Shown here piece after piece: positions 22,790 through 63,890 of a stretch of 64,000 nucleotides of DNA. The first letter of the stretch is position 1. Each line of letters begins with the position of its first letter. Source of the stretch: an uncultured Holophagae bacterium (GTDB lineage: Bacteria > Acidobacteriota > Thermoanaerobaculia > Thermoanaerobaculales > Sulfomarinibacteraceae). The notes under the pieces are model-generated. The model saw only the letters and a program-made list of their open reading frames with translations, ran no database searches and had not been told where the DNA came from. Position numbers and translations under genes: made by a program. The stretch spans positions 669,544-733,543 of the forward strand of contig CAWDGW010000017.1 in NCBI GenBank assembly GCA_963801995.1, read 5' to 3'.

Positions 22790-22842
22790 GCACGGGGAGT
22801 CCGATGCTAAGCCGATGGCTTCTGGCTGTCAATCGCGGGCCG

Positions 22843-22908
22843 GTGCCGTGAGGCGGGATGGGCCGCAGAAGAACGCGGTTTAGGAATTGGGCGCAGATCG
22901 ACGCAGTT
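22843..22908 (+). other. copy A of a ~65-nt post-tag element (..GTGCCGTGAGGCGGGATGGGCCGCAGAAGAACGCGG..GCGCAGATCGACGCAG)
   Basis: About 85% identical by eye to 26350-26414. It starts with GTG CCG TGA, resembling the V-P-stop end of the tagged genes. A weaker third copy lies at 24166-24230. Confidence 0.6.
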
Positions 22909-22922
22909 CAACAGCCCCAGCA

Positions 22923-23004
22923 CCAGGGCCGACACATTTGGCGGTTGGTGGGTGGTTCAAAACCATCTTGACTCGGCACGAAGGGTCAACAGTGTCGGCC
23001 CTGG
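22923..23004. repeat. 13-bp perfect inverted repeat CCAGGGCCGACAC / GTGTCGGCCCTGG with 56-nt spacer
   Basis: Read directly. The spacer contains two smaller hairpins (GGTGGTT-caaa-AACCATC and TTGAC-N12-GTCAA). It may be a structured RNA or terminator next to the tRNA. Confidence 0.6.
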
Positions 23005-23056
23005 CACCGATATCGGCGCTTTTTCTGCCTCCGCACATTATCCGCATGTTTTCCTC

Positions 23057-23085
23057 ATGACAATCTCGTTTCTGAGACCTATATT
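23057..23085 (+). promoter_or_regulatory. putative sigma70-type promoter
   Basis: ATGACA-N17-TATATT, 40 nt upstream of ATG 23125. Confidence 0.4.
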
Positions 23086-23124
23086 GTGACCAACTGTTCA
23101 GATCTACAGAACGGGGGGAGAGTC

Positions 23125-24174: not shown

Positions 24175-24285
24175 AACGGATAGGCCGCGGATGAACGCAG
24201 ATCAGGCGCAATGAGGCGCAGTCAAAAAAACGATCTGGCGAACCGGCCGTATCCACAGTGAAGGTGTTCAGCCGGGGGAGGTGCC

Positions 24286-29696: not shown

Positions 29697-29881
29697 CCGA
29701 AGCCTCCAAGACTGGTACCGATGGCACCAAATCCGGCACCGGTTTACATTCTAGCAAGTTGTTGGTGATACGTTTTCTCAAAATTTGAAAAACACCCGAG
29801 GGGAGTGAATCTCCCCACGATGACCGCTGAAAAGAACGATCGGGAGAGTGGCGAGTGCTGAGCCCCCCGTCTCGGTGCGGT

Positions 29882-36588: not shown

Positions 36589-38171
36589 ATGAAGCAGGAA
36601 ATCCTCCTCGGCGACGAGGCGATCGGGCTCGGGGCGATCCACGCCGGCCTGAGCGGCGTCTACGGCTACCCCGGCACGCCATCCACCGAAATATTCGAGT
36701 TCATCGAGCGGCGAACGGCGAAAGCCGGCGATGTCCACGCCTTCTGGAGCACCAACGAAAAGGTCGCTTACGAGGAGGCCCTCGGCATGAGCTGGGCCGG
36801 CAAACGGGCCCTGGTGTGCATGAAACACGTGGGCCTGAACGTGGCCGCAGACGCCTTCATGAACTCGGCGGTGACCGGCACCAACGGCGGCCTGGTGGTG
36901 GCGGTGGCTGACGATCCCGGAATGCACTCCAGTCAAAACGAGCAGGACAGTCGGTACTACGCCCAGTTTGCCCTCATCCCATGCTTCGAACCCCGCAACC
37001 AGCAGGAATGCTACGACATGATCTTCGACGCCTTCGACATGTCGGAAGAGCTGGAGGTGCCGGTGATGGTGCGGTTGGTGACCCGCATCGCCCACAGCAG
37101 GTCGGCGGTGGAGATCCGAGAGAAGCGAGCTCAGAACGAGCTCGAGCCCTCCCGCGACATCAAGAAGTGGACGCTGTTGCCCGCCAACGCCCGCGTCCAG
37201 TACCAGCATCTCACCGAAAAGCAACCCGAGCTGCTTCAGCGAGCCGAGGAAAGCCTCACAACACCCTGACGTTGGCCGGGCGCACCGGGGTCATCACCTG
37301 CGGAATCGCCAACAACTACTACCTGGAGAACATGGGCACCGCGCACGATCAGTCGGTGCTGAGCCTGGCCCAGTACCCGATTCCGGCCAACCTGGTCCGG
37401 CAGTTGGTGGACCACGTGGACGAATTGCTGGTGATGGAAGACGGATACCCGCTGGTGGAATCCACTGTCCGCGGTCTGTTCGGGCTGCAGGACGTTCAGG
37501 TCAAGGGCCGGATGACCGGAGAGCTGCCCCGAGCCGGCGAGCTCAACCCGGACATCGTCAGGGAGGCGCTCGGTCTGCCCGTCCACCCCTCAGCCCACGA
37601 GCCATCGCCGGAGCTGGCCAACAGGCCGCCGGCGCTGTGCAAGGGATGTCCCCACACCGACACTTTCCGGGCGCTCAACGAGGCGCTGAGCGGTTTTGAC
37701 AACCCGCAGGTCTTCTCGGACATCGGCTGCTACACCCTGGCCGCCCTGCCGCCGCTGGAGGCGGTGCACTCGTGCGTCGCCATGGGTGCCAGCATCGGCA
37801 TGGCCGCCGGCGCCGCCCACGCCGGCTACTCGCCGGCAGTCGCAGCCATCGGCGACAGCACTTTTTCCCACGGGGGCATCACACCGCTGCTCTCCGCGGT
37901 CCAGCAAAGGGTGAACCTCAACGTCATCGTGGTCGACAACAGCACTGTGGGAATGACCGGTACCCAGCGATCCATGTCCACCGGCGATTCCCTCGACCAG
38001 ATCATCGTCGGTTCAGGGATCGAACCGGAGCATATGAGGATCATCGAGCCGACCCCGAAGAACCACATCGCCAATGTGCAGGTCATCCGGGAAGAGCTCG
38101 CATTTGACGGCACCAGCGTAATCATCGCCCGCAGAGCCTGCATCGAAGCCCTCAAAAGGCGGGCGAACTGA
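36589..38171 (+). CDS. iorA: indolepyruvate:ferredoxin oxidoreductase alpha subunit, one 1-nt frameshift near 37250
   Basis: N-terminal MKQEILLGDEAIGLGAIHAGLSGVYGYPGTPSTEI, Cys motif CKGCPH and TPP block GDSTFSHGG..VVDNSTVGMTGTQ. The protein continues from ORF 36589-37269 into ORF 36981-38171. Confidence 0.8.
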
Positions 38172-46449: not shown

Positions 46450-46478
46450 TTGCCAAAAACGCGTTGCAGTTATAGATT
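46450..46478 (+). promoter_or_regulatory. putative promoter of giant gene 1
   Basis: TTGCCA-N17-TAGATT, followed by the purine-rich leader ATAGAACAACACATCAAGAGAGAAAG. It is homologous in layout to 52296-52324 and 58352-58380. Confidence 0.5.
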
Positions 46479-46618
46479 TATCTCAATAGAACAACACATC
46501 AAGAGAGAAAGATGAAAAGGCCGTCTCCTCAGGTGCACTCGACTCGTCCACGCGGTACTGCCATTCCGGGCGGAGGGGCCACTTCACCCTTGAGCCACAC
46601 GCGATATCGGAGGGAGTC

Positions 46619-49600
46619 ATGACCCACGATCCAGGTTCCCATCCAGCCACCCGCCGGATTTCTGACTCATCACGACAACCCGGAACATTGGCCCGCCCAT
46701 TGCGGTCCCGGGTCCGGCTCGGAAAGGGCTGCGCATCATCGATCAGTTGGATCCGCGGATTGCGGGCATTCGCCGCGATGCTTGCCCTCTTGTCCTCCGG
46801 CACCATCTGGGCCCAGACCGCAGGCACTCTCAAATGGGAGTACGTCACTGCCTCCTGGCCGTTTGGATCGCCAACCCTTGCCACCGACGGTTCCATATAC
46901 ATCACCACCTGGGCGTTTTGGCCCGGGCTGTACGCGGTCAATCCGGACGGGACGGAAAAGTGGGTCTACCTTCCCGGGTGGGATGTGCAGGCGACTCCCG
47001 CGATCGCTCCCGACGGCACGGCCTATTTCGGGTTGGAAAGCCAAGACTGGGTCCACGCCGTGCGACCCGACGGCACTCGGAGGTGGCGGGCCGCGGTGGA
47101 GGCTGACAGCTACGCATCCCCGGCCATCGCCCGCGACGGAACGGTGTACTTCGGGACGGAATGGTATTCGGAGAACAACCTCTATGCCTTCAATCCCGAT
47201 GGGACCCTCGAATGGACCCGCGACACCGGAGGGCATGTCTACTCTTCTCCCGCCATCGCGTCGGACGGCACGATCTACGTGGCCTCGGACGACATGTATT
47301 TGGATGCACTCAATCCGGATGGGTCTCTTCGCTGGAGATTTGAGTTTGCGACCTCAGGCTCGGGCAGCGACTTCGCCTCATCTCCGGCGATCGCCGCTGA
47401 TGGGTCAATCTTCATTGGATCGCAGAACCGGAATCTCTATGCCATCAACCCTGACGGATCACTCCGTTGGACGTATTTCTTCGGGTCGCCGGTTTTCGCC
47501 TCGCCGGTGATCGGGCCGGATGGGGCGGTTTTCGTCGGCACCAACAACGGCATCATGAACGCCATCAACCCGGACGGAACCCTCAGATGGCAGTTCCCCA
47601 CCGGAGACTCGCTCAGATCCTCATCGGCCGTAGGCTCCGATGGGGCAGTCTATTTCGCGACCGCGTACTCCGGCACTCTCTACTGCGTCGATGCGGGCGG
47701 CACCCTTCAGTGGACCTTTCCGGTCGGCGAATGTTATATGTCCTCACCGCTCATCGGTCCGGACGGGACGGTGTACATCGGAGGCTTCCGCTCCCTCTAC
47801 GCCATTCACTCTGACTCTCCGGGACCGGCCCACAGCCCGTGGCCCATGTTCCGACAGAACGTGCGACGCACCGGGCGCTCCGAGAGGTACCTCACCCCCC
47901 TGTCCATCGGCGAGACCGTCCAGACGATCATCCCGAGGTACGGAGTGCACGACTATTCCTTGGACACCATCGCCGGCGAATCTCTGCTGGTCACGGTGGA
48001 ACCGGGAGCCGGGGCCACAGGCCTGGTGCTGTCAAGCCAAGCCGGGACCTTAGCCCAGACCAGCGATTCACCGGCGGCGTCCGGCCATTACGAGCTTCTG
48101 ATCACACCAACTGTGGAGAGTGGCTACGTGCTGTCGGTCTTCGGTGCCGACGTGGACGAAAACGGAGGCGACTACTCGATCACCGCCAACTACGTGACCC
48201 ATCACGCGAGCGAGGTCGAACCGCAGATCGCCGGCAACTTTGGTGAGGCGAGCGTCGTCATCAGCGGCCTCGGCTTCGTCGACCCGATGCAAGTCCAGCT
48301 GACAGGTCCGGGCTCCCTTTCCGCGTTTTCCACGACCACCGCCTCACCCACCGAACTCCTGGCTCGATTCGACCTCGCTGCAGCTCCAACCGGGATCTAC
48401 GACCTGACGGTCACCTGGCCCGACGCCACCTGGGTCACCCTTTCCGCCGCCTTCGAGGTCGTTCCGGGCACCGGCCCGGAGTACGAGGCCCACCTCCGGG
48501 TTCCGGAAGGCGTGCGGGCAGCGCGCCAGTACGTCGCCTGGCTCGAGTATGCCAACACCGGAGACACGGATCTGCCGGCTCCGCTGTTCACCGTGCGGTC
48601 CAACACGTCGATCTCGCTCGACCCCGATCAGATCGATCGCAACCGGGTGGAGATCCTGGGCGTGGGCGGCCCCACCGACCCGTCCGTCCTCCACCCGGGG
48701 GAAAGCCGACGGGTGCCGGTCTACTTCATGGCTCCGGGCAGCGGTATGGCGGAATTCGAGTTGTTCGAGACGATCGACGACAGCCAGCCCATCAACTGGG
48801 CTGATCACAAGGACGAGATGCGACCCCCGGACATGGATCCGTCCCTGTGGGACATTATCTGGCCCGATTTGATCGCTCGGCTCGGCGTCACGTGGAGTGA
48901 CTACCTCGACGTGCTCCGCTCGGACGCGTCACGGCTGCAGCGGGCCGGACGCAGAGCGTACGACGTTGGCCAGATCATCGCCCTCGAGGTCGGACTGGCG
49001 ACGGGTGATCCCGTCACGACGATCAGCGGCACGCTCAGGAACGCGGCGAGCTACGAACCGCTCGCCGGTATCACCGTCCGACTGCGGAGCACCGACGGGT
49101 CGTCGATCGCGGAGACCGAGACGTCGTACGCGCCGCCCGGGTACTTCCTCTTCGAAGAGGTGGCAGACGGCGACTACGAGCTGTGGATCGATGGTTACTA
49201 CGTGGACCCGGTGCCGTCGGTCTTCATGGCCGGATCGGACATCACCGGGGTGGAGCTGCTGGCCCATGAGTACGATCCGGCTCCGGTCCTCTCGGAAGAG
49301 GAGATTCCGCAGCACGCACCGTCCATAACGATGGATGATGCCGGCGTGGCGTACATGGTGTGGCAGGAAGGTCCGGAGCTCCGCAGTGCGATCAACACCG
49401 CGGGTGTGTGGACCGATGCCGGTCCCATTCCCGGGGCAGAGGGGTCGATGCCCACCGTGGTGTGGGACGCCACCCTGCTCGACGGCGGCACCTCCCCCGG
49501 CCTGTTCGCCGCGTGGCAGTCGGGAGGTCCGGTCAGCACCATTCAGTGGTCGCTCGGGCGCCCGGTCGGGGGCGACATCCAGTGGACCACACCTGAGAGC

Positions 49601-52141
49601 CTCACATCAGATATGGCGGACGACGTGTCCATCATCGCCTTCGTGAGCGACCTGAACGAGCCGGTGGTGCTCTGGCTGCAGCGGGACTACACCATCGCCG
49701 ACGATACGGACCTCTACTTCACCGTGATCCCTCCGCCGCCGCCGCTCTCGCCTCTCGTCCTGCCCGGCCCGAAATCCTCAAGCTACATGCCCGGCGAATG
49801 GCCGTTCTGCTCGAACCCCGGATTACAGGTCATGAAGGAGCTCCCACCCAACATACCCTTTGTGGGCGGCCACTGGGGGTGGAAGGTCATCGGCAGCGGA
49901 TGTGACGCCTTGACCAGCTGCAACCCCCTGATTTCCCCAAACTGGACCATCAAGGTCCCACTCGGGTCGCTAACGAATTTCAACGCCACTGCAGCCTTCA
50001 GATTCCAGTTCAACACCGAACCTTGCGAATGCAAGTATTTGCTCAACGAGGCCCGGATCAGCGCACAAAACGTCGGGGTCAACCTCTCTGTACCGGTTTA
50101 TGCGGTACCGCTCATCGCCGGAGACGTTCCACTCGGTATCGCGACACTGGCGGTCGGAATCGGAGCCACCCTCAACGGAAACCTCACCTGGCACTCGAAC
50201 TTCCCGATTCTGGGCGCGAGCGAAGGGGTTCTCGGCTTGGGTGTCGGGTACGCGATCGAAGGAAAAGTAAACTTCTTTTTTGGGCTCGACGGCACCGTCA
50301 CAGGATCGGCAACGATCTACTGGTCCCAGAGCCAACCCGATTACGACATCAAATTCACCGGAGAGTGCGTCAGGCTCCTCGGCGTTGCCGCGATGGGATA
50401 CGGGCTGGTCAGCGAGCCGTACTGCATCCAGTGGGGTTCGTCGTGTCCTCCACAGGCCGGCTGCCCGGATTCCCCTCCGCCAATCGAAGAAATGACCTAC
50501 CAGGGTCCCAACGGCCTGGCGTCATTGGGCTCGGAAACCGAGATGTTGGATGACCAGTTTCCCGTGGCATGGCAGGTCGAGTACGTCAAGGACCCGTTGA
50601 TCGGCACCGGGTCGACCTACGAGGGCGCCCCGGTGCTCGGAGACATCTCAGGGGACATATACACCGATGGTCCCCCTGAAGTTGCAGCGTCCGGAACCAG
50701 CGAGTACCTGGCGGCCTGGGCGAAGGCCGAGGAGGCGCACGTGCTCGGCGCCAAGGTCTGGGCCTCAAGCTTCAACGGCACCACCTGGTTGACACCGGTC
50801 GCCATCACGCCAGCTACAAACCTCATCAAGGACCCAGCGGTGGTGTTCGATTCTGCCGGTGAACCCATCGCCGTATGGTCGGAGGCCTCCAACGCCGGCC
50901 TCGACTTCGACACCAGCCCGGTGGAAGACATCCTCGCTGCCATCGAGCTTGCCGACATTTTTTTCTCCCGGCGTATCGGAGGGGTTTGGACCGCGCCGTC
51001 GCTGGTCGCCGCCCCGGCCGGGCGCGACGAGCAACCCGCCATCGCGGCCGACGCGACAGGCGCCGCCGCACTGGCGTGGCTCAACCAGTCCGCGGACGGG
51101 GGCTGGACTCTCTTCGCGTCTCTCTGGAACGGCAGCACCTGGTCCTCTCCCGCGGCGGTGGCCACTCCGCCGATCGCCTACCGGCCCCGGGTCTTTTACC
51201 AGGGGGGTCAGCCGATTCTCCTCTGGACCCAACCGCCGACCGACGAGCCGCAATCGGTCTCCGGATGGCGGCTGTACTCCTCGACCTGGGACGGGGTCGT
51301 GTGGTCGGATCCCACTCCGGTGGAACCGCAGGCTCCTCCTGACCTTCCACCCGCGCCCCTCGGCGAAACCGAGTACGACCTGCAGCTCCCGGATCCGCCG
51401 CCGCAGTGCTGTCTGGAAAGCTGCGACGACCCGCTGCCCGTCGATCCACCGCCGGTCCAGCAGGATGAACTGGAGACAGCTTCGGTACCGGTCGTTGCCA
51501 GCAACGACCCCAACGAAAAGGTCGGTCCCGCTGGGGTCGGTGATGGTCATTTCATCGCTGCAGGTGACCCTCTTGATTACGTCGTGTACTTCGAAAACCT
51601 CCCTGCCGCCAGTGCTCCGGCCCAGGAGGTCTTTGTCACCGATTGTCTCGCCTATGAGCTCGACTGGAACTCTGCAACCCTGACCGAGGTCGCCTTTGGA
51701 GAGGTGGTGATCGCGAACCCGGGCCAACATGGCGTATTCAATGCTCGGGTCACCGTTCCCGACCACAGACCGGCCGTGGACCGGGACTGGTGGGTCGAAA
51801 TGTCAAGCCACCTGGACCTCGCGACCGGGTGCGTGGAGGTCGTATTCCGCACCCTCGACCCCGACACCGGTGAGCTGCCTGACGATCCCTTTGCAGGCTT
51901 CCTGCCTCCGGAGGACGGCACCGGACGGGGCCAGGGGCACATCGCCGTGTCGGCGGACTCGAAGCCCGACCTGGTGGACGGCACCGTCATCACCAATCGT
52001 GCGTCGATCATATTCGACATCAACGACTCCATCATCACCAACGAGGTCTTCAACACGATTGGTGATCTGGAGCCGACGCTTCCGTTCTACGACGGATTCG
52101 AGTCCGGCGACACCTCGGCCTGGTCGCGGACGGTGCCGTAG
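46619..52141 (+). CDS. giant secreted multidomain protein 1 (1840 aa), tagged
   Basis: Signal-like RAFAAMLALLSSGTIWAQ; the true start may be downstream of 46619 (for example TTG near 46760). Then ~8 PQQ-like propeller repeats (SSPAIxxDGTIYVGS..LYAINPDGxLxW). The mid-region domains are labelled from motif appearance only: a PPC-like domain, an Ig-like domain, a CarboxypepD_reg-like domain (ISGTLRN..GDYELWIDGYY) and W-rich propeller-like regions. Next come a Cys/Gly-rich module (49799-50470) and a DPNEKVGPAG...IIFDINDSIITNEVFNTIG domain. Ends ..FYDGFESGDTSAWSRTVP*. Confidence 0.8.
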   Translation: MTHDPGSHPATRRISDSSRQPGTLARPLRSRVRLGKGCASSISWIRGLRAFAAMLALLSSGTIWAQTAGTLKWEYVTASWPFGSPTLATDGSIYITTWAFWPGLYAVNPDGTEKWVYLPGWDVQATPAIAPDGTAYFGLESQDWVHAVRPDGTRRWRAAVEADSYASPAIARDGTVYFGTEWYSENNLYAFNPDGTLEWTRDTGGHVYSSPAIASDGTIYVASDDMYLDALNPDGSLRWRFEFATSGSGSDFASSPAIAADGSIFIGSQNRNLYAINPDGSLRWTYFFGSPVFASPVIGPDGAVFVGTNNGIMNAINPDGTLRWQFPTGDSLRSSSAVGSDGAVYFATAYSGTLYCVDAGGTLQWTFPVGECYMSSPLIGPDGTVYIGGFRSLYAIHSDSPGPAHSPWPMFRQNVRRTGRSERYLTPLSIGETVQTIIPRYGVHDYSLDTIAGESLLVTVEPGAGATGLVLSSQAGTLAQTSDSPAASGHYELLITPTVESGYVLSVFGADVDENGGDYSITANYVTHHASEVEPQIAGNFGEASVVISGLGFVDPMQVQLTGPGSLSAFSTTTASPTELLARFDLAAAPTGIYDLTVTWPDATWVTLSAAFEVVPGTGPEYEAHLRVPEGVRAARQYVAWLEYANTGDTDLPAPLFTVRSNTSISLDPDQIDRNRVEILGVGGPTDPSVLHPGESRRVPVYFMAPGSGMAEFELFETIDDSQPINWADHKDEMRPPDMDPSLWDIIWPDLIARLGVTWSDYLDVLRSDASRLQRAGRRAYDVGQIIALEVGLATGDPVTTISGTLRNAASYEPLAGITVRLRSTDGSSIAETETSYAPPGYFLFEEVADGDYELWIDGYYVDPVPSVFMAGSDITGVELLAHEYDPAPVLSEEEIPQHAPSITMDDAGVAYMVWQEGPELRSAINTAGVWTDAGPIPGAEGSMPTVVWDATLLDGGTSPGLFAAWQSGGPVSTIQWSLGRPVGGDIQWTTPESLTSDMADDVSIIAFVSDLNEPVVLWLQRDYTIADDTDLYFTVIPPPPPLSPLVLPGPKSSSYMPGEWPFCSNPGLQVMKELPPNIPFVGGHWGWKVIGSGCDALTSCNPLISPNWTIKVPLGSLTNFNATAAFRFQFNTEPCECKYLLNEARISAQNVGVNLSVPVYAVPLIAGDVPLGIATLAVGIGATLNGNLTWHSNFPILGASEGVLGLGVGYAIEGKVNFFFGLDGTVTGSATIYWSQSQPDYDIKFTGECVRLLGVAAMGYGLVSEPYCIQWGSSCPPQAGCPDSPPPIEEMTYQGPNGLASLGSETEMLDDQFPVAWQVEYVKDPLIGTGSTYEGAPVLGDISGDIYTDGPPEVAASGTSEYLAAWAKAEEAHVLGAKVWASSFNGTTWLTPVAITPATNLIKDPAVVFDSAGEPIAVWSEASNAGLDFDTSPVEDILAAIELADIFFSRRIGGVWTAPSLVAAPAGRDEQPAIAADATGAAALAWLNQSADGGWTLFASLWNGSTWSSPAAVATPPIAYRPRVFYQGGQPILLWTQPPTDEPQSVSGWRLYSSTWDGVVWSDPTPVEPQAPPDLPPAPLGETEYDLQLPDPPPQCCLESCDDPLPVDPPPVQQDELETASVPVVASNDPNEKVGPAGVGDGHFIAAGDPLDYVVYFENLPAASAPAQEVFVTDCLAYELDWNSATLTEVAFGEVVIANPGQHGVFNARVTVPDHRPAVDRDWWVEMSSHLDLATGCVEVVFRTLDPDTGELPDDPFAGFLPPEDGTGRGQGHIAVSADSKPDLVDGTVITNRASIIFDINDSIITNEVFNTIGDLEPTLPFYDGFESGDTSAWSRTVP

Positions 52142-52175
52142 GGGTCGAGGTTCGGGGCTCGGGGTTCGGGAGCGG
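52141..52175. repeat. 7-bp array GGGGTCG AGGTTCG GGGCTCG GGGTTCG GGAGCGG
   Basis: Begins at the last base of the giant-1 stop codon. Confidence 0.9.
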
Positions 52176-52295
52176 AATGTACGGCAGGGGTTTACCCCCC
52201 GCCAATCGGAAACCGCCGAGATCCCCCGGGGATAGACCACCGGGCCGCGGGTTTCTGATCGAAGCAGGTGATTCTTCTCGCCGTCGCCGATGGCG

Positions 52296-52324
52296 TTGTC
52301 AAACATCGGCGTAGGGTCTATATT
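52296..52324 (+). promoter_or_regulatory. putative promoter of giant gene 2
   Basis: TTGTCA-N17-TATATT, then the leader GTTTTCCAAGAAACAACAAGCGAAGAGAGATTGG. The ORF-track start at 52324 falls inside this -10 box and is an artefact. Confidence 0.5.
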
Positions 52325-52521
52325 TGTTTTCCAAGAAACAACAAGCGAAGAGAGATTGGTGCAGTGACTGCGACTGTTGTGGCGCGATCACGACTGAATC
52401 ACCCCCGCAGGATAGGACCCAGGTTCCCAAAAAAACAGGGTTCAAGGGACCGGTGTTTCGACCGCGACCCACCCATCTGTCACCATCTTCATCCCCAAAC
52501 TCGCACGAAGGGAAGCTGACC

Positions 52522-55500
52522 ATGGAACGTTCGGTCAGGGTCTGTTGCGCCGTCTCGCTCCTCCTCCTGCTATATGTGCCCTCAGCGCTCGCCCAGGAGC
52601 CCGGAACCGTAAAGTGGGTCTTCAGTCCTCCCAACACGTATGAACTCGACTCCCCGCCAGCGATTGCCCGAGACGGCACGATCTATGTGGCCGGTCGCGA
52701 TTGGTATGTGTGGGCCCTCAACCCGGACGGGACCCTCAAGTGGCGTTTCACCGCCGATGCGGGATTCCGCTTCAGATCGCCGGCGGTCGCGCCGGACGGA
52801 ACAGTTTATATCGTTGATGACGATAAAGATCTCTATAGCATCGATCCCGACGGAACACTGCACTGGAAGTGGGATAGCCCGGGCCAATACTTCGAAACGA
52901 CCCCGGCTATCGGCCCGGACGGGACCATTTACATCACGGCCAACGACGACGGAGCCGACAACCTCTTCGCCTTCAACCCCAACGGCACGGTCAAGTGGTC
53001 CATTGAAGCCTCGAGTCCGATCACGTCGTCCCCGGCCATCGGCAGAGATGGGGCCATCTACGTCGTCACAGACGGGAGGACTCTCGAGGTCTTCAACCCC
53101 GACGGCAGCCCTGCGTGGAGCTACGTAATGGACGCCGATGGTAGTAGTTGGTGGGCGAACTCGTCACCAGCCATAGGACCTGACGGAGCTATCTACGTCG
53201 CTGGCGGCCCTTTTAGCGATCATGGGCTCTTTGCCATCAATCCCACGGGGACCCTTCGCTGGAGGTTCGATGCCCCATCCGAAATCTACTCGTCGCCGGC
53301 CATCGGGCCCGATGGAACACTCTATGTCGGGACCTACGGCAACAAGCTGCTCGCCGTCAATCCGGACGGCACCCTTCAGTGGGAGTACGTGCTGACCAAT
53401 TCTGTGTACTCCTCAGCGGCGGTCGGATCGGATGGCACGATCTACGTGGGGACGGTCAACGGCTTCATGAACGCGGTCAACCCGGACGGCACACTGCAGT
53501 GGCAACATGAGGGATCCAGCTATTGGTACACCTCGCCGGTTATTGGCCCGGACGGCACGGTCTACGGAGGAGGTCAGCCCTCGTTCTACGCCCTCTACTC
53601 CAGCAGCGACGGCCTCGCCGACACCTCATGGCCCATGTACCACCAGAATGCCCGCCACACGGGAAAGTGGGAGAACGTAGTCATACCGCTTGCCGTCGGC
53701 GACAGCGCGGAGAGCATCGTCCCTCGTGGAGGCAATCACTACTACTCAGTGGAGCCCGATCCCGATCAGGCCCTGTTGATCGAGCTGATTCCCGGGGTGG
53801 ACGCCAACGATCTTTTGCTGACAGGCCAGCTCGGTGCCACCACCTTTTCCACCACAACACTGACACCGAACGGGACCTACGATCTTCTGATCTCCCCCAC
53901 GGCTGCGACTCCCTACACCCTGGCCGTTTACGGTGCCGATGTTGGGGACAACGGCGGCGCCTACACATTGACGGCGAGTTACGTAGAACACCATCTCAGC
54001 AATCTGTCACCGCGGGTTGCTGGAAACGCGGGCGAGGCGCGGTTGGAAATCACCGGGCTGAGGTTTTCCGATCCAATGCAGGTCGCCCTGTCCGGGCCGG
54101 CCTCGATCAACGCATCGGAGGTTTCGGTTGGATCGGACTCCGATGTCCTGGCGCGTTGTGACCTCACCGGCGCCCCAACCGGCACCTACGACGTCACCGT
54201 CACGTGGCCCGACATGAGTTCGGAAACCCTGCCGGGCTCGTTCGAGATCGTACCTGGCACCGGTCCCAACCTCGAGGCGCGCCTGGAGGCACCCGAAGCA
54301 CTCAGGGCCTTGCGTCGCTACGTTGTGTGGCTCGAGTACGCCAACACCGGTGACGCCGACATGCCGGCTCCCCTGTTCACCGTGCGAGCCAACGTCGACG
54401 TCTCCCTGGATCACGATGACATCGCGGGGCACAGCGTCGAGGTCCTCGGCATCGGCGGTTCAACAAACCCGGATGTGCTGCGGGTCGGCGAGTCCATGCG
54501 GTTTCCCATCTACTTCATCGCGCCGAACCTCGGCAGCGACGCCGAGTTCGAGCTCCTCGAAACACCGGACAGCAGCGAGCCCATCGACTGGCCGAGCCTC
54601 AAGGAAGGTATGCGCCCGCCCGACATGGACCCGGGCGTGTGGGATGCTCTGTGGCCCGATCTGATCGCCCGCCTTGGCGTCACCTGGGCCGACTATCTCC
54701 AGGTGCTCAGGGACAATGCGGCGAGGGCCGCATCCTGGGGATTTCCCACCCACGATCCATCCGGCCTGATTGACCTCGAGGTGCTGCAGGCGGCCGGTGA
54801 ACCGCACGCAGCCATCGCCGGCTCGCTGCGCCTCGCCACAACCAACGAGCTCCTGCCGGGCGTGACCCTTCGCCTGCGCAGCCTCGACGGCGCGGTGGTG
54901 AAGGAAACGGACACGACCTATACCCCTCCGGGCCGATTTGCATTTCACGAGGTGCCGGACGGCAGCTATGAGATCTGGATCGAGGGCTACTACCCCGACC
55001 CCGTCATGCAGGTGGAGGTGGTCGGCTCGGATGTGACCGATGTCCAGCTCGTTGGATTCCCCTACGAGCCGGTGAAACTCTCCGAATTCGCTCTCCCCCA
55101 ACACACCCCGGCCATGACAGCGGACGGCACAGGCACTCAATACCTCCTCTGGAAAGAGGGAGCCGAGATCCGGTGGGCCATCAACTCGGGCGGTGTGTGG
55201 ACCCACTCCGGCCCGATCCCCGACGCCGACGGTTCGAATCCCAAGGTCGTGTATGACGATGCTCTGCTGGATGGCGGAATGACCCCCGGGCTGTTTGCCG
55301 CCTGGGAGACCAGTGGGATGGAGAGCACCATCGAGTGGTCGGTGGGTCGATTCGTCTCGGAGGGCATCGAATGGAGCGAGCCCGAAGCGCTGACCTCCGA
55401 CCTGGCCGATGATTTTTCAATTGCTCTATTCACCGACACGGCGTCTGTTCCGATTGTTCTTTGGTTGCAAAAGGACTACGCCATCACCGACGACACGGAT

Positions 55501-58139
55501 CTCTACTACCAGGCCGTTGGTCTCTCCGGGGTTACTGTCAATGATCCCTTCTTCGACTTCGCTTCGATGGCAAGGGATCCGGGCGACTGGCCCTTCTGCT
55601 CGAACCCAGGGCTGAAAGCTCTGTCCGAGCTCCCACCCGGCATTCCCATCATCGGTGGCCACTGGGGGTGGAAGGTCATCGGCAGCGGCTGCGCCCCGCT
55701 CACAACCTGCAATCCGGTGCTCACGCCGAATTGGGATATTGAGATCCCGTCTGGGGCAGCTCGCCAAGTTCGTCGGCAACGCCGGCTTCACCTTCAAGTT
55801 CCAGATCGATCAATGCCCGTGTTCCTACATGCTCCACGAATCCGCCATCAATGCCGGCATCGGGATCAACATCGACGTGCCCGTGGCCGAGGTTCCCCTC
55901 ATTCTCGGCAAGATCCCGGTGGGATACGCCATAGCTACTCTCGGCGTGGCTGGCAACCTCGGAGGCAGTCTGATCTGGCACTCGAATTTCCCAATCCTGG
56001 GTTCCAGCGACGGCGTCCTCAACCTCGATGTCGGCTACGTTGTGACCGGAAAGTTGACCTTCTTCTTCGGTGGCCTGGAGGGCAAGGTCACCGGAGACGC
56101 AACGGTCTATTGGACACAACAGCAACCCGACTACGGCATCAGATTCCTTGGGGAATGCGTCCGACTCATCGGGACAGCATCATCCGGATTCGGGGTCCTC
56201 GAGGAGAATTACGGGATCCAGTGGGGATCCAACTGCCCGCCGCTGCCCACCATGGGAACCGAGGGAATCCGTTTTGACTTCGCAACATCCAGTGATTCAC
56301 GAGACGTCCAAGTCGAGTCACAGATCGAGTACGTGAAAGCTCAATTGGTGGGAACCGGCACGATCCTATGAGGGAAACCCGGTTCTCGGCGACATCTCGA
56401 CTGATCTCTATATCGACGGCCCACCCTCCGTGGCTGTGAGCCCAACCGGAGGTTCTCTCCTCGTCTGGGCAAAGGCCGAGCAACACCAGAACCTCGGAGC
56501 CAAGATCTGGGCATCGAGCTACACGGGAACCGGCTGGTCGACACCAGAGGCCATCACTCCGTCAACGAATTTCGTCAAGGACCCATTCGTCGCCTATGAC
56601 TCGAACGGCAACGCCATGGCCGTGTGGTCCGAAGCCTCCAATGCCGGCCTCGATTTCAATACGAGCTCGGTGGAGGACATCGCGGCGGCGGTCGAGATCG
56701 CCGACATCTGGTACGCACGGCACACCGGAAGCGCGTGGTCGTCACCGGCCCGCCTGGCTGATCTGCCGGGCCGAGACGAGCAGCCGCACCTTGCCCGTGG
56801 TCCGTCGGGGCAGATCGCCGCAACCTGGCTCAACCAGGACGACCTCGGCGATTGGGCGCTCTACGCCGCGATCTGGTACGGATCCTCATGGTCCACACCC
56901 ACCATCATCGCGACACCACCCATCGCCTATCGCCCACTGGTGTACTACCAGGGCGGATTTCCTACGGTTCTCTGGAGCCAGGCCGATCCCGACGTCCCCG
57001 AATCGTTCAACGATTGGAAGCTCTACTGGTCCTCGTGGAACGGAGTGTCCTGGTCCGAACCTGAACCGGTGGGACTTTCCGGATCAACAAAAACCACTGA
57101 AGCTCCTACAGGTCCTGACTCGATGCTGGATCTGCAGTTTCCCGATCCTCCCTCCTACTGCTGTCTGGACAGCTGCGACGATCCTCTGCCCCCGGATCCC
57201 GCCTCCGGCGGCGCCACCCAGATTCCTCAGGGCAACGCATTCTCGCCGGTTGTGGCCTCTGTCGATCCCAATGAAAAGACCGGACCCGCCGGCTCAGGCG
57301 ACGAACACTTCATCGATGCCGGTGACCGGCTGGATTACGTGGTCTATTTCGAAAATCTGCCGGCCGCCGCCGCCCCCGCCCAGGAGGTCTTTGTCACCGA
57401 CTGTCTTGACCACGATCTCGACTGGACCTCGGTCACTCTGGACGAGGTGGCGTTCGGTGATTTCATCGTCGGCAATCCTGGTGCGGAGCCGCTCTTCGAC
57501 ACCCGCATCACCATTCCGGACCACCGGCCTGGCGAAACCAAGGAATGGTGGGTGGACGTCATCACCGACTTCGACCTCGGCACCGGCTGCCTGGACGTCA
57601 TATTCCGCACCCTCGACCCGGTCACCGGGGAGCTGCCGGAGGATGCCTTCGCCGGCTTCCTGCCGCCGGAGGACGGCACCGGCCGGGGCCAGGGACACAT
57701 CAGCCTGTCCGTGGACTCAAAGACCGACCTGGTTGACGGCACCGTCATCACCAACTTCGGCACCATCGTCTTCGACATCAACCAGTCCATCGTCACCAAC
57801 GAGGTCTTCAACACCATCGGCAGCCCGCTGGAGCCGGTGCTCACCGTGAGCCTGGCCGGACCCGGCAGTGGGGTGGTGACCAGCGATCCCCCCGGCATCG
57901 ACTGCGGCGTTGACTGCACCGAGGCCTATCCCATCGCGACGATTGTGGACCTCGAGGCCACCGCGGAGCCCGACTCAGAGTTTGTCGGCTGGTCCGGCGA
58001 TCCGGACTGCTCGGACGGCACGGTGACCATGGACAGCGACAGGAGCTGCACCGCCACCTTCGACCTGCTGCCGTCGCTGCCCTTCTCGGACGGGTTCGAA
58101 TCCGGCGACACCTCGGCCTGGTCGCACACCGTGCCGTAG
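52522..58139 (+). CDS. giant secreted multidomain protein 2 (~1871 aa), tagged; two 1-nt insertions (about 55750 and 56364)
   Basis: Starts MERSVRVCCAVSLLLLLYVPSALAQEPGTVKWVF. It has the same architecture as giant 1. The sequence continues across ORFs 52324.., 55655.. and 56430.., judged by alignment to giants 1 and 3. It carries an extra 81-aa Cys-containing domain (57828-58070) before the tag. Ends ..FSDGFESGDTSAWSHTVP*. Confidence 0.8.
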
Positions 58140-58173
58140 GGTTTTTTGGGGGGTCAGCCGACAGGCGAACATT

Positions 58174-58204
58174 TTCTTAGTTCTTAGTTCTTAGTTCTTA
58201 GTTG
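58174..58204. repeat. 7-bp array (TTCTTAG)x4
   Basis: Read directly, 35 nt after the giant-2 stop. Confidence 0.9.
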
Positions 58205-58266
58205 CGAACGGTTGTCGATCGTTCGAATCGTCGAGGCCTGCCGGGGACGAGGCGGTGGGCGGGGGG

Positions 58267-58294
58267 AAATCAAAACTCAGAACTCATAACTCGC
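58267..58294. repeat. 7-bp array AAATCAA AACTCAG AACTCAT AACTCGC
   Basis: Read directly. Confidence 0.8.
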
Positions 58295-58351
58295 GGCAAT
58301 TCCCGCCTTTTCACCCAACCAGATCGAATCCCTCGCAGCGCCTCCACTTCG

Positions 58352-58380
58352 TTGTCCAGCGTCCAAAACGCTGGTATATT
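58352..58380 (+). promoter_or_regulatory. putative promoter of giant gene 3
   Basis: TTGTCC-N17-TATATT, then the leader CGTTTTCCAAGAAACAACAAGCCAAGAGAGACTGG, nearly identical to the giant-2 leader. Confidence 0.5.
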
Positions 58381-58479
58381 CGTTTTCCAAGAAACAACAA
58401 GCCAAGAGAGACTGGCGCTGCAGATGTTGTTTTCATGGTGCGATAGTGGCTCAGGTATGCAACCGAAAGGACTCGTGCA

Positions 58480-61400
58480 ATGGCCCATTGCGTCCCGACT
58501 CGTGTCGCCCTCACGGCCCTGATCCTGATCAGTTCGACCGTCAGCTCCAGTCAAGAGCCCGGCACCGTGAAATGGGTTTTCAGCCCACCCAATACCTTTG
58601 AGCTCGATACGTCGCCGGTCATCGGCCGTGACGGCACAGTTTACGTAGCCGATCGCTACCTATACCTGTGGGCGCTCAACCCGGACGGGAGTCTCAAATG
58701 GCAGTTCAGCGCCGATGACGGCTTCGAAGCCACTTCACCGGCCGTCGCACCGGATGGAACCATCTACATCGTCGACGACTCACAGAATTTCTATGCCATC
58801 AATCCGGACGGTTCCCTCCGCTGGATGTGGGAAGACCCGGACAACCAACGTTTTGAATCGACCCCGGCCATTGGTCCGGACGGGACCATTTACATCACGG
58901 CCAACGACGACGGAGCCGACAATCTTTTTGCCTTCAATCCCGACGGGACCATCAAGTGGTCGACACAAGCATCGACGTTCATAACCTCATCTCCGGCCAT
59001 CGGCAGAGATGGTGCCATCTATGTCGTCGTGGATGCGAGAATCCTCGAGGTCTTCAACCCGGACGGCACTCTTGCCTGGAGTTATGAGATGGACTCCGAG
59101 GGACACAATTTTTACATAAACTCGTCGCCAGCCATCGGGCCTGACGGTGCGATCTATGTAGGCGGAGGACCATGGACCGATCCGGGGCTCTTCGCCATCA
59201 ATCCCAACGCCACGCTTCGATGGAGGTTCGATTCCCCGTCCGCAATCTACTCATCACCGGCCATTGGGCCCGATGGGACCATTTATGCCGGAACCTACGG
59301 CAACAAGCTGATGGCCGTCCACCCCAACGGAACGCTCCTTTGGGAGCATGGGCTCGGTGGCTCTGTCTACTCTTCCCCGGCGGTCGGATCGGATGGCACG
59401 ATCTATGTTGGTTCGTCGAATGGCTTCATAACAGCGGTCAACCCGGACGGAACCCGACAGTGGCGGCATGAGGGATCCTGCTGGGAGCTCGCAAGCCCTG
59501 CAATCGGCCCGGATGGGACGGTTTACGGGGGTGGACAGCCCTCGTTCTATGCGTTGTACTCAAGCAGCGACGGCCTTGCCAACACATCATGGCCCATGTT
59601 TCAGCAGAACGTCCGCCACACCGGGAAGTGGGAGAACGTGGTCACGCCGCTCGCTGTTGGCGACACCGCCGAAAGCACTGTCCCACCAGGAGGCAATCAC
59701 TATTACTCGGTGGAGCCCGACGCCGATCAAGCCCTGTTGATCGAACTCATGCCCGGGGTGGGCGCCGACGATCTCTTGCTCACCGGGCAGCTCGGCGCCA
59801 CAGTTTTTTCCACCGCGACGCTGACACCGAACGGGACCTACGAACTTCTGATCTCCCCCACGGCCGCGACGCCCTACACGCTGACCATCTACGGTGCCGA
59901 CGTAGGACCAAACGGAGGCGCCTATTCGCTGACGGCTCGGTACGTCGACCACCACCTCAGCGATCTGTCACCTCGGGTAGCAGGCAACGCCGGTGAAACG
60001 CGACTGGGAATCACCGGATTGAGATTCTCCGACCCCATGCAGGTCTCCCTGTCCGGACCCGGCGCAATCGGCGCCACCGAAGTCACGGTGGGATTGGACT
60101 CGGACGTCCTGGCACGTTTCGACCTCACCGGAGCCCCCACCGGCACCTACGATGTCACCGTCACCTGGCCCGACATGACTGAGCGAACCCTCTCAGGGAT
60201 ATTTGAGATCGTGGCCGGCACGGGGCCTCAGCTCGAGGCACAGCTTGTGGCACCCGAAGCACTCAGGGCCTTGCGTCGCTACGTTGTGTGGCTCGAGTAC
60301 GCCAACACCGGCGATGCCGACATGCCGGCTCCCCTTTTCACCGTACGAGCCAACGTGGACGTGTCCCTGGATCACGATGACATCGCGGGGCACAGCGTCG
60401 AGGTCCTGGGCATCGGCGGTTCGGCAAACCCGGATGTGCTGCGGGTCGGCGAGTCCATGCGAGTTCCCATCTACTTCATCGCACCGAATCTGGGAAGCGA
60501 CGCCGAGTTCGAGCTTCTGGAAACTCCGGACACCGGTGAGCCCATCGACTGGCCCAGCCTCAAGGAAGGTATGCGCCCGCCCGACATGGACCCGGGCGTG
60601 TGGGATGCTCTGTGGCCCGATCTGATCGCCCGCCTTGGCGTCACCTGGGCCGACTATCTCCAGGTGCTCAGGGACAATGCGGCGAGGGCCGCATCCTGGG
60701 GCTTTCCCACCCACGATCCATCCGGTCTGATCGATCTCGAGGTGTTGCAGGCGGCCGGTGAACCGCACGCGGCCATCGCCGGCTCGCTTCGCCTCGCGAC
60801 GACCAACGAGCTCCTTCCAGGTGTAACGCTCCGCCTGCGCAGCCTCGACGGCGCTGTGGTCAAGGAAACAGACACCACCTACACCCCTCCGGGCCGGTTC
60901 GTGTTCAACGAAGTGCCGGACGGCAGCTACGAGATCTGGATCGAGGGCTATTACGTGGATCCGGTGATGCAGGTGGAGGTGGTGGGCGCCGACGTGACCG
61001 CGGTGCAACTGATTGGGTACCCGTACGAGCCGGTGGAGCTCTCCGAATTCGCTCTGCCCCAACACACTCCGGCCGTGACAGCGGACGCCGCCGGCACCCA
61101 GTACCTCCTCTGGAAAGAAGGAAACGAGATCTGGTGGGCCATCAATCCGGCGGTGTGTGGACCCACTCAGGCCCGATCCCCGACGCCGACGGTTCGAATC
61201 CCAAGGTCGTGTATGACGATGCTCTGCTGGATGGCGGAATGACCCCCGGGCTGTTTGCCGCCTGGGAGACCAGTGGGATGGAGAGCACCATCGAGTGGTC
61301 GGTGGGTCGATTCGTCTCGGAGGGCATCGAATGGAGCGAGCCCGAAGCGCTGACCTCCGACCTGGCCGACGATTTTTCTATCGACCTGTTCACCGATGCG

Positions 61401-63863
61401 GCATCGGTGCCCGTGGTGCTCTGGCTGCAGCGGGACTACGCGATCAACGACGACACGGACCTCTACTACCAACCCGTCGGTCTCTCCGGAATCGCCGTCG
61501 ATGATCCGTTCTTTGACCTCGACTCGATGGCGCGGGATCCTGGCGACTGGCCATTCTGCTCGAACCCCGGCCTCAAAGCGCTGTCCGAGCTTCCGCCCGG
61601 AATTCCGATCATCGGAGGTCACTGGGGCTGGAAGGTCATCGGCAGCGGCTGTGCACCCCTGACCACCTGTAATCCGGTTCTCACGCCCAATTGGGAGATC
61701 GAGATCCCCCTGGGGCAGCTCGCCAAGTTCGTCGGCAACGCCGGCTTCACCTTCAAGTTCCAACTGGAACAATGCCCGTGCTCCTACATGCTCCACGAAT
61801 CCGCCATCAACGCCGGCATCGGGATCAACATCGACGTGCCCGTGGCCGAGGTTCCCCTGATTCTCGGCAAGATTCCGGTGGGGTACGCCATAGCTACTCT
61901 CGGTGTGAGCCGGCAACCTCGGAGGTGGTCTCATCTGGCACTCGAACTTCCCAATCCTGGGCTCCAGCGACGGCGTCCTCAACCTCGATGTCGGCTACGT
62001 TGTGACCGGGAAATTGACCTTCTTCTTCGGTGGTCTGGAGGGCAAGGTCACCGGAGACGCAACGGTCTATTGGACCCAGCAGCAGCCCGACTACGGCATC
62101 GCTTCCTTGGGGAGTGCGTTCGACTTGATCGGGACCGCGTCAATCGGGATTCGGCGTTCTCGAGGAAACTACCTGATCCAATGGGGATCCAATTGCCCAC
62201 CGCTGCCCAGCATGGGAATTTGAGGGAATGTATATTCCCGTTCGGGAATCCGGTACATCGCGAGACGTCCAAATCGAGTGGCAGATCGAGTACGTCAAGG
62301 CTCAGTTGATGGGACCGGCACGACCTACGAAGGCAACCCCGTGCTCGGCGACATCTCGGCAGACGTCTATATCGATGGACCGCCCTCTGTTGCCGCCAGC
62401 GCCTCAGGAGATGCTCTCCTCGTCTGGGCCAAGGCCGAGCCACACCAGAACCTCGGCGCCAAGGTCTGGGCGTCCACCTACACCGGTACTGGCTGGTCTG
62501 CACCGGAAGCCGTCACTCCGGTAACCGATTTCATCAAGGACCCATTCGTCGCCTATCGACTCAAACGGCAACGCCATGGCCGTGTGGTCCGAAGCCTCCA
62601 ATGCAGGCCTCGATTTCAATACCAGCCCGGTGGAAGACATCGTCGCGGCGACCGAGCTCGCCGACATCTGGTACGCACGGAACACGGGGGCGCGTGGTCC
62701 TCACCGGTCCGGCTGGCTGATCCTCCCCGGCCGAGACGAGCAGCCATCCCTCGCCCGCGGACCCTCTGCACAGATCGCCGCCGCCTGGCTCAACCAGGAC
62801 GACCTCGGCGACTGGGCGCTCTACGCCGCGATCTGGTACGGATCCTCATGGTCCACGCCCGCCATCATCGCGACGCCACCCATCGCCTATCGCCCGCTGG
62901 TGTACTACCAGGGCGGATTTCCTACGGTTCTCTGGAGCCAGGCCGATCCCGACGTCCCCGAATCGTTCAACGACTGGAGGCTCTACTGGTCGACGTGGAA
63001 CGGTGTGTCCTGGTCGACTCCCGAGCCGGTGGGGCCTGGCCGCGCCTTCGGAGGGCACCACGAGACCCGACAGAAGTCGTGTCTCGATGCTGGACCTGCA
63101 ATTCCCGGATCCTCCGTCCTACTGTTGTCTGGACAGCTGCGACGATCCTCTGCCCCCGGATCCTGCCTCCGGCGGCGCCACCCAGATTCCTCAGGGCAAC
63201 GCATTCTCGCCGGTTGTGGCCTCTGTCGATCCCAATGAAAAGACCGGACCTGCCGGCTCAGGCGACGAACACTTCATCGATGCCGGTGACCGGCTGGATT
63301 ACGTGGTCTATTTCGAAAATCTGCCGGCCGCCGCCGCCCCGGCCCAGGAGGTCTTCGTCACCGACTGTCTTGACCACGATCTCGACTGGACCTCGGTCAC
63401 TCTGGACGAGGTGGCGTTCGGTGATTTCATCGTCGGCAATCCTGGTGCGGAGCCGCTCTTCGACACCCGCATCACCATTCCGGACCACCGGCCTGGCGAA
63501 ACCAAGGAATGGTGGGTGGATGTCATCACCGAATTCGACCTCGGCACCGGATGTCTGGACGTCACATTCCGCACCCTCGATCCCGTAACCGGCGAGCTGC
63601 CGGAGGATGCCTTTGCAGGCTTCCTGCCGCCTGAAGACGGCACCGGTCGTGGACAGGGTCACATCAGCCTGTCCGTGGACTCAAAGACCGACCTGGTGGA
63701 CGGCACCGTCATCACCAACTTCGGCACCATCGTCTTCGACATCAACCAGTCCATCATGACCAACGAGGTCTTCAACACCATCGGCAGCCCGGGACCGTCG
63801 CTGCCCTTCTCGGACGGATTCGAGTCCGGCGACACCTCGGCGTGGTCGCGCACCGTGCCGTAG
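58480..63863 (+). pseudogene. giant secreted multidomain protein 3 (~1794 aa if repaired), tagged; N-terminal 2.66 kb intact, then about 12 single-nt indels between 61147 and 63080
   Basis: Starts MAHCVPTRVALTALILISSTVSSSQEPGTVKWVF. It is colinear with giant 2 (offset about 5958 nt) with stretches of 100% nucleotide identity. The conserved protein sequence hops among ORFs 58480.., 61134.., 62002.., 62228.., 62278.., 62576.. and 63003... Ends ..FSDGFESGDTSAWSRTVP*. It may be a real pseudogene or an assembly artefact. Confidence 0.7.
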
Positions 63864-63890
63864 GGGTTCGGGAATCGGGGTTCGGGGGGA
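63863..63890. repeat. 7-bp array GGGGTTC GGGAATC GGGGTTC GGGGGGA (G-quadruplex-capable)
   Basis: Begins at the last base of the giant-3 stop codon. Confidence 0.9.

Follow-up and report, generated by a model that had tools for sequence, protein, structure and literature searches.

What might three giant genes, set one behind the other and nearly identical in some parts while strongly diverged in others, be doing in the genome of an uncultured bacterium? The question is raised by a 64,000-nucleotide stretch of contig CAWDGW010000017.1 from an uncultured Holophagae bacterium (here called the window), whose last 17.5 kb hold three colinear plus-strand genes for secreted proteins of about 1,800 residues: Giant 1, Giant 2 and Giant 3 (G1, G2 and G3). 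An initial annotation, made from the DNA letters, had described three tandem paralogs with mosaic identity, recent gene conversion and one identical multi-domain architecture, and had proposed large surface or extracellular binding proteins. We find that each giant consists of a signal peptide, an eight-bladed PQQ-like β-propeller, a core of about 1,400 amino acids (aa) and a 17-aa C-terminal tag; that the copies have a mosaic ancestry; that the core is kept in other proteins behind other heads; and that purifying selection has acted on the genes. The explanation we favour, with somewhat better than even confidence, is that the giants are secreted or surface-bound, extracellular binding proteins with a swappable head, and the binding role first proposed is still the most plausible one.

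Heads and core of the giant proteins

The array itself is as first described: three tandem copies that differ by 15-40% and span 17.4 kb (27% of the window), with two tandem copies at the same locus of a related genome, L054. No further copy was found within the window, which ends 137 nt past G3. For G1, the longest open reading frame (ORF) runs from 46619 to 52141 with its start at 46619, and the database protein P0001 corresponds to G1 from an ATG at 46778 (1787 aa, 100% identical); a TTG start at 46760 yields a better signal peptide (MRAFAAMLALLSSGTIWA, then Q) and fits the N-termini of homologues. Signal peptides are present, as annotated, in all three copies (3/3). Colinearity of the domains holds throughout, and strict identity of architecture does not, since G2 carries an 81-aa Flg_new_2 domain that is missing from G1 and G3.

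The PQQ-like propeller at the N terminus is well supported. Against a cut-off of 27.6 bits, PF13360 (PQQ_2) scores 106.9 in G1, 97.8 in G2 and 95.3 in G3, and eight blade motifs of the form DG[TSA]x[YF] can be counted in each head. Identity with BamB itself was considered and rejected: the equivalog models TIGR03300 and NF008351 score 60.5 and 53.8 bits, far from their cut-offs of 285.2 and 423. A scan of genome contigs with G1 returned propeller relatives only, since the PWPMFRQN pattern alone was shared.

Behind the head, a profile of the first part of the core finds the same region, contiguous, in 130 retrieved proteins with other heads. Within this part, the CarboxypepD_reg-like label of the initial annotation stands in a qualified form: PF13620 stays under its cut-off of 32.3 bits in every giant (22.3, 23.0 and 24.5 in G1, G2 and G3), yet 13 of 14 family members match it at E <= 0.01, the strongest of them at 8.2e-8. 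Two neighbouring labels fell away. PPC (PF04151) gave no Pfam hit in the whole protein at E <= 0.1 or in an isolated 100-aa segment at E <= 10, and with it goes the argument from a protease-associated domain; the supposed Ig-like domain had no significant Pfam hit either. About 1,100 residues in each giant lack a significant Pfam hit.

Two W-rich regions follow, and the suggestion that they are propeller-like is supported by matches to the sialidase/BNR fold. Their description as two separate units needs correction, because elsewhere they recur as one contiguous unit of about 690 positions that encloses the Cys/Gly-rich module; both regions probably belong to a single propeller that the module splits. 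AlphaFold2 (AF2) modelling of this mid-module from a 13-sequence alignment reached a pLDDT of 68.8 overall and 80-92 in both W-rich regions. The Cys/Gly-rich insert, modelled from 36 diverse sequences, came out as about 12 long strands (pLDDT 82.2, pTM 0.70).

The core is far more widespread than the giants. An exhaustive HMMER profile search with the 700-aa mid-region against protein cluster representatives retrieved 5,931 of them at E <= 1e-3, 1,514 at <= 1e-10 and 239 at <= 1e-30, many matching end to end, with the longest of the proteins reaching 7,671 aa. Three relatives checked against Pfam have CarboxypepD_reg, mid-module and DUF7619 in the same order behind other heads, namely a right-handed β-helix, WD40 propellers, and LVIVD with PPC and CARDB; a fourth, P0147, showed DUF7619 alone. 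As the mid-module and the first part of the core are conserved and contiguous behind differing heads, the unit reads, by these profile matches, as a variable head on a constant core of about 1,400 aa.

Towards the C terminus, two prolines and two cysteines of a short linker (P1540, P1541, C1544 and C1545) do not vary among 14 homologues, and the "DPNEK domain" of the initial annotation proves to be DUF7619. PF24595 scores 52.9, 60.4 and 63.3 bits in G1, G2 and G3 against a cut-off of 27, and all of the 14 family members match it. A 2025 survey (PMC12617251) places DUF7619 among the CnaA-like domains, predicts a Lys-Asp-Asn isopeptide bond for it and notes that the family is often met in surface proteins of Gram-negative bacteria. 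In the giants, K1581 (in DPNEK), D1622 (in FVTDC) and N1740 (in ITNxA; all in P0001 numbering) are invariant in 14 homologues, and they correspond in order and in profile position to the triad given by that survey, the assignment being by position. DUF7619 of the giants may thus be closed by an intramolecular Lys-Asp-Asn isopeptide bond. A PDB sequence search with the C-terminal 251 aa returned nothing relevant. The additional domain of G2, a divergent InlB B-repeat, matches PF18998 narrowly (E 3.4e-5, 24.2 bits against a cut-off of 23.6) and corresponds to a 244-nt indel relative to G3; it also occurs in both L054 giants (G54a and G54b) and in the giant of a second related genome (G53, from L053).

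All three giants end in the tag that the initial annotation had pointed out. It is a polar stretch of 17-20 aa, with the consensus DGFESGDTxxWSxxVP-COOH and ending in …TVP-COOH, and it closes six ORFs of the window, the giants and three others; a related motif, ADGFETGDVWRWTDS, lies at 31630-31680, just past the signal peptide of the ORF at 31555-32493. Among 269 retrieved relatives it is found in seven, all of the closest clade, and other relatives end at the same position in dockerin-like repeats or in …YLPLIxR. Because endings vary among relatives in the choice-of-anchor pattern and other secreted proteins share this one, the tag may be a sorting or retention signal, perhaps specific to the lineage. 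It has neither the hydrophobic helix and basic tail of exosortase/sortase-type signals nor the C-terminal domain of about 80 aa of type IX secretion (T9SS), and a literature search for GFESGD found nothing relevant.

Mosaic ancestry and exchange between lineages

G2 and G3 are 85.565% identical over 5251 nt; G1 shares 65-70% of its DNA and about 48% of its protein residues with either, in keeping with the statement that it differs at roughly half of them. A sliding-window profile upholds the mosaic. Identity between G2 and G3 lies at 0.60-0.80 in the propeller, which had rightly been called diverged, and rises to 0.96-0.99 at 54.3-54.75, 55.2-55.35 and 57.14-57.5 kb. Alignment offsets are 5960 to 5964, so that the first estimate of about 5958 nt was close and slightly short. 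One stretch reported as identical (54591-54736 and 60551-60696) was 4-5 nt out of register, and its true position is given in Table 1; the other, 55195-55410 against 61155-61370, is nearly identical as claimed (214 of 216 positions).

The frames of G2 and G3 were repaired with an intact orthologue as reference, and nonsynonymous (dN) and synonymous (dS) divergence was then measured in windows along both genes. The synonymous values span a range of more than 10-fold, from a dS of 0.8-1.2 over codons 1-550 (the head) to 0.19-0.30 in codons 601-750, 0.14 at codon 851 and 0.056-0.10 in codons 1551-1650. Identical third codon positions run to 66 in a row at the longest, where 10,000 permutations gave no run above 41 (p <= 1e-4). 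In three-sequence comparisons, informative sites of codons 601-800 group G2 with G3 (39:8:7 and 39:9:5), and those of codons 1201-1500 group G3 with the L054 orthologue G54b (63:10:2, 40:3:1 and 31:10:0). Both marks of gene conversion are present here: near-identical tracts that include synonymous sites and are flanked by diverged sequence, and phylogenetic incongruence relative to an orthologue. Since synonymous divergence is heterogeneous and G54b groups with different copies by region, the mosaic of G2 and G3 is the work of recombination and not of constraint alone. The conversion that had been proposed is confirmed in this way; that it was solely recent and within one genome is not, as other lineages have taken part in the exchange.

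Across three related genomes the locus holds one, two or three copies. The window and L054 share synteny (an oxidoreductase, an ADP-forming acetyl-CoA synthetase, YjbQ and an RND pump), and the genome baseline of dS between them is 0.30-0.56. Against this baseline, dS between G3 and G54b is four- to eight-fold lower over codons 1201-1451 (0.055-0.10) and well above it in the propellers (1.2-2.5). The propeller-coding 1 kb or so of G54b (16.1-17.1 kb in L054) is 94-99% identical to that of G53 (9.2-10.2 kb in L053), whereas flanking genes of these two genomes are about 76% identical (dS ~0.93), which suggests recent exchange of a head cassette between lineages. G1 lacks close relatives, with 54% for its best match. 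From the dS contrasts of G3 and G54b, and from the identity of the G54b and G53 heads set against genome-wide divergence, segments, and above all the head, appear to be exchanged not only between paralogues but also between lineages.

A functional link to the upstream RND efflux genes was rejected because the L053 giant lacks such genes and homologues elsewhere sit in unrelated contexts. The adjacent RND pump has its best named relatives in Thermoanaerobaculales (Acidobacteriota), at 81-84% identity, which gives no more than a taxonomic hint. In L054, the two giants are followed by a 957-aa gene (21948-24821) without a Pfam hit, for which no counterpart was matched within the window at E <= 1e-8.

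Promoter-like sites lie upstream of all three giants. In an alignment of the upstream regions of G1-G3 and the three L054 and L053 giants, invariant columns run through the -35 and -10 elements and AAGAGAGA, and the leader is conserved across these six regions of three genomes; the giants are probably separate, similarly regulated transcription units. An Rfam scan of the whole window detected one tRNA only (a single gene at 22716-22789 on the minus strand) and no riboswitch or other element upstream of the giants. The spacer between G2 and G3 carries a heptamer repeat that occurs once in the window, and also upstream of both L054 giants, after the preceding stop. A partly complementary GAACTCA-type repeat lies about 90 nt downstream of it, and the spacer has no stable RNA fold relative to shuffles (z = 0.57).

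Table 1. Positions of the giant genes, their parts, related elements of the window and homologous loci
Feature	Position	Strand	Remarks
Promoter-like site of G1	46450-46478	+	TTGCCA-17-TAGATT, then conserved leader …AGAACAACACATCAAGAGAGA…
G1 coding sequence	46760-52141	+	intact ORF; likely start TTG 46760
G1 PQQ-like (BamB-type) β-propeller, variable head	46826-47827	+	PF13360, E 1.6e-30, 106.9 bits
G1 core part 1	47915-49291	+	~460 aa, β-rich, one helical stretch; profile of region
G1 CarboxypepD_reg-like domain	49019-49186	+	PF13620, below cut-off
G1 W-rich region 1	49313-49732	+	read as N-terminal blades of sialidase/BNR-fold propeller; AF2 pLDDT 80-90
G1 Cys/Gly-rich insert	49760-50617	+	predicted all-β, ~286 aa, ~12 long strands; AF2
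G1 W-rich region 2	50618-51337	+	read as C-terminal blades of the same propeller; AF2 pLDDT 80-92
G1 CC-containing linker	51395-51436	+	PPQCCLESCDDPLP; P1540, P1541, C1544, C1545 invariant
G1 DUF7619 ("DPNEK" domain)	51500-52063	+	PF24595, 52.9 bits (cut-off 27)
G1 C-terminal tag	52079-52138	+	LPFYDGFESGDTSAWSRTVP; same tag in G2 (58080-58136) and G3 (63804-63860)
Promoter-like site and leader of G2	52296-52355	+	TTGTCA-17-TATATT; conserved leader AGAAACAACAAGCGAAGAGAGA
G2 coding sequence	52522-58139	+	two 1-nt insertions in assembly (55749, 56364); reads in three frames
Conversion tract	54595-54740	+	146 nt exact match to 60556-60701, offset 5961; inside 91-97% block 54.3-54.75 kb, where 39 sites pair G2 with G3 (other pairings 8 and 7)
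Conversion tract	55210-55409	+	200 nt exact match to 61170-61369
Conversion tract over DUF7619	57201-57556	+	exact runs of 86, 89 and 164 nt against 63165-63520
G2-only extra domain	57828-58071	+	81 aa, divergent InlB B-repeat (Flg_new_2), PF18998; between DUF7619 and tag
Heptamer tandem repeat, G2-G3 spacer	58170-58204	+	(AGTTCTT)x4-5, just after G2 stop
Promoter-like site and leader of G3	58352-58411	+	TTGTCC-17-TATATT; conserved leader
G3 coding sequence	58480-63863	+	~14 small indels in assembly, all in 61147-63080; reads in at least 4 frames
Tagged ORF, choice-of-anchor-B/LVIVD protein	23086-24174		tag 24124-24174
Tagged ORF	24684-25445		tag 25395-25445
Tagged ORF, subtilase	29855-31471		tag 31421-31471
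Locus L054			two intact tandem giants (G54a, G54b); flanks 86.8% nt identical to window, dS 0.30-0.56; same synteny
Locus L053			one giant (G53); flanks ~75% nt identical to window
Loci L055-L059			five other homologues, single copy each, unrelated contexts

Elsewhere in the window, a NiFe hydrogenase cluster (1494-15526) comprises a small subunit, a 4Fe-4S protein, an NrfD-like membrane subunit and a large subunit, with maturation genes of the HypB-like, HypF, HypD and AIR-synthase (HypE-like) types. A minus-strand ORF at 28319-29696 encodes a lectin-like domain together with no more than the final 30 positions of a papain-type peptidase C1 domain, and may be another frameshifted gene.

Gene integrity and rival explanations

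As assembled, G2 and G3 do not read through: set against G54b, two 1-nt insertions interrupt G2 and about 14 small indels interrupt G3. The two could be real pseudogenes and the array a decaying remnant of duplications in which G1 alone functions, as the frameshifts and their density in G3, far above that of the rest of the window, would suggest. We think this improbable. Once repaired, both frames are free of in-frame stop codons over about 1,850 codons. Decay by 14 indels should leave neutral substitutions, and precisely in the indel-dense stretch G3 and G54b differ by a dN of 0.000-0.014 and a dS of 0.055-0.10 (dN/dS ~0.1), which favours assembly error; about 14 indels beside some 57 substitutions is no natural ratio. 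Housekeeping genes of the same window are also broken. The α/β gene of 2-oxoacid:ferredoxin oxidoreductase (POR; 36589-38171) changes frame at about 37254, and in both L053 and L054 the orthologous gene encodes one protein of 527 aa, 86-92% identical either side of the break. HypF is split over two overlapping frames, one with acylphosphatase and zf-HYPF fingers (9905-11446), the other with Sua5/YrdC and HypF_C, its last subdomain cut short (11146-12663); the split gene adjoins intact NiFe hydrogenase and HypD genes, and so points to assembly indels. Defects of this sort recur in related long-read assemblies: the giant of L053 is split, the tag of G54b (16019-21640 in L054) is out of frame through a 1-nt difference near codon 1842, and G54a (10001-15718) reads 14 codons beyond its tag, its stop codon replaced by CAG. 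Names of the pattern contig_NNNNN hint at a long-read assembler. Assembly or sequencing error is thus very likely the cause of the G2 and G3 frameshifts, so that all three giants are probably functional genes, and the pseudogene look of G2 and G3 should be treated with caution in annotation as most likely an artefact. Could the copies or their mosaic then be artefacts too, as a duplicated or chimeric consensus of co-occurring strains? Indel errors do occur in this assembly; the related assemblies all come from one study with neighbouring ENA accessions, so that chimeric assembly is possible; and mis-polishing between similar copies could yield local identity. Nevertheless, the copies are 15% (G2 and G3) to 40% (G1) apart, with different heads and domain content, two intact copies stand in tandem, with the same synteny, in the independent assembly of L054, and the recombination signal is also seen between separately assembled contigs and genomes. 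An artefactual array is therefore highly improbable, and the three copies are not an assembly duplication.

Other alternatives concern what the proteins do. The giants could be extracellular enzymes, for example polysaccharide hydrolases or lyases, with a catalytic PQQ-like or sialidase-fold propeller. Foldseek matches of the inner propeller in the PDB are to GH33 sialidases and related propellers (E ~1e-5, probability 1.0, TM 0.22-0.25), including GH145/GH43 enzymes and a PL25 lyase; the profile matches 2w38, a Pseudomonas sialidase/pseudaminidase, over 63 positions (E 1.2e-4); and β-helix heads, which typify polysaccharide lyases, occur in some relatives. The inner propeller is only about 10% identical to the enzymes, however, with TM scores of 0.2-0.25, the head matches generic PQQ_2/BamB-type models alone with the BamB equivalogs far under threshold, and the WD40 and LVIVD heads of relatives are typical binding modules. 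Catalysis by GH33 sialidases needs an arginine triad, and no invariant arginine was found in the mid-module columns, which makes a GH33-type active site, and with it sialidase activity, unlikely. The enzyme explanation as a whole we consider unlikely as well. A membrane β-barrel within the insert, serving as outer-membrane anchor or insertable pore and making the giants membrane-active, has a shade less to recommend it. The best matches of the modelled insert in PDB and BFVD are all outer-membrane barrels (Pla, OpcA, porins, TpsB, an autotransporter β-domain), and its 12 or so long antiparallel strands, with aromatics at their ends, alternate strictly by two residues between an uncharged, hydrophobic, Gly-rich face and a polar face that is 15-60% charged. 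Yet these matches are weak (E >= 2e-3, TM ~0.2, rmsd ~20 Å), the insert matches no Pfam family and gave no outer-membrane protein match at E <= 1 in 36 members, and glycines on the hydrophobic face fit a packed interior better than a lipid-facing surface. The alternation does not tell a soluble β-sandwich from a membrane barrel, and the modelled strands would suit either a packed sandwich or a barrel.

Against secreted binding proteins with a swappable head, several observations have to be weighed. There is no gene-wide signal of positive selection, and dN/dS in the head is about 0.15-0.2. The inserted β-domain has no confident fold match, which leaves part of the core unexplained. The tag gave no NCBIfam hit at E <= 10 and matched no known sorting-signal model; distribution is the sole basis of the role proposed for it. 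Over the whole region, promoter-like sites number three against a shuffle expectation of 3.2, so that their weight comes from position and conservation only. The giants have no conserved partner genes, the other homologues lying in unrelated contexts, and the 14 indels that G3 packs into 1.9 kb, far over the window background, leave real decay conceivable.

With swappable-head binding proteins as the preferred explanation, the parts could work together as follows. A Sec signal peptide would export each giant, and the eight-bladed PQQ/BamB-type propeller would serve as its ligand-binding head. The core would present β-rich domains, a CarboxypepD_reg-like domain and a non-catalytic sialidase-fold propeller carrying the all-β insert of about 280 aa, followed by a disulfide-type CC linker and by DUF7619, presumably locked by its Lys-Asp-Asn isopeptide bond; the 17-residue tag would then sort or retain the protein. 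In the tandem array, three different heads would be offered on nearly one scaffold, each giant under its own conserved promoter-like site and leader. Gene conversion would homogenise parts of the scaffold between G2 and G3, and recombination would import or replace segments, especially the head, from related lineages. A bolder combination, in which the core represents an undescribed and widespread class of giant proteins, the barrel-like insert acts on or in a membrane, the head is exchanged horizontally and DGFESGDTxxWSxxVP is a sorting signal, is rather doubtful when all its parts are taken together.

With some 1,100 unannotated residues per protein, and a module that at least 1,500 protein clusters share behind varied heads, the array offers an entry point to such a class. 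It is also a natural experiment, in which a single scaffold bears three heads, and in which conversion tracts and imported segments help to show the part under pressure to vary. The tag common to these proteins may point to a pathway of secretion or retention in this uncultured lineage, which probably belongs to Acidobacteriota (Thermoanaerobaculales-like).

Comparison with known systems

In kind, the giants, read as a recombining family of large surface proteins, are familiar; the core module, the inserted domain and the tag have not been described. Multigene surface families diversified by gene conversion include opa and pilE-pilS of Neisseria, pmp of Chlamydia and vls of Borrelia. As in those families, the giants are paralogous and mosaic, with conversion tracts and a conserved scaffold joined to a variable part. 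Unlike them, the array showed no silent cassettes and no programmed switching, each copy has its own promoter-like site, and the variable part is a whole domain of 350 aa swapped between lineages rather than a set of short hypervariable loops.

Proteins of the PQQ-binding-like/BamB type (PF13360; the NCBI name of the homologue P0010, MFC2144229.1) share the eight-bladed N-terminal propeller. BamB, however, is a lipoprotein of about 390 aa; the propeller makes up only some 19% of a giant, and the other 1,400 aa have no BamB counterpart. By fold and by profile, the W-rich regions are matched best by GH33 sialidases and six-bladed BNR propellers, but the giants lack the invariant arginine triad, are only about 10% identical to these proteins and have their propeller interrupted by a domain of 280 aa.

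Isopeptide adhesins (CLIPPER/DUF11, DUF7507 and DUF7619; PMC12617251) resemble the giants in the DUF7619 domain near the C terminus, with its invariant Lys, Asp and Asn, and probably also as large, secreted Gram-negative proteins with a distal binding domain. The giants differ from them in having a single DUF7619 and no tandem stalk, and in that a unique globular core, instead of repeats, makes up most of their length. Finally, choice-of-anchor families (NCBIfam, e.g., TIGR04312, choice_anch_B) likewise combine one body with C-terminal endings that depend on lineage, and the choice-of-anchor-B homologue in the window itself bears the tag of the giants. This tag does without the hydrophobic helix and basic tail known from PEP-CTERM and LPXTG endings, and without a T9SS C-terminal domain.

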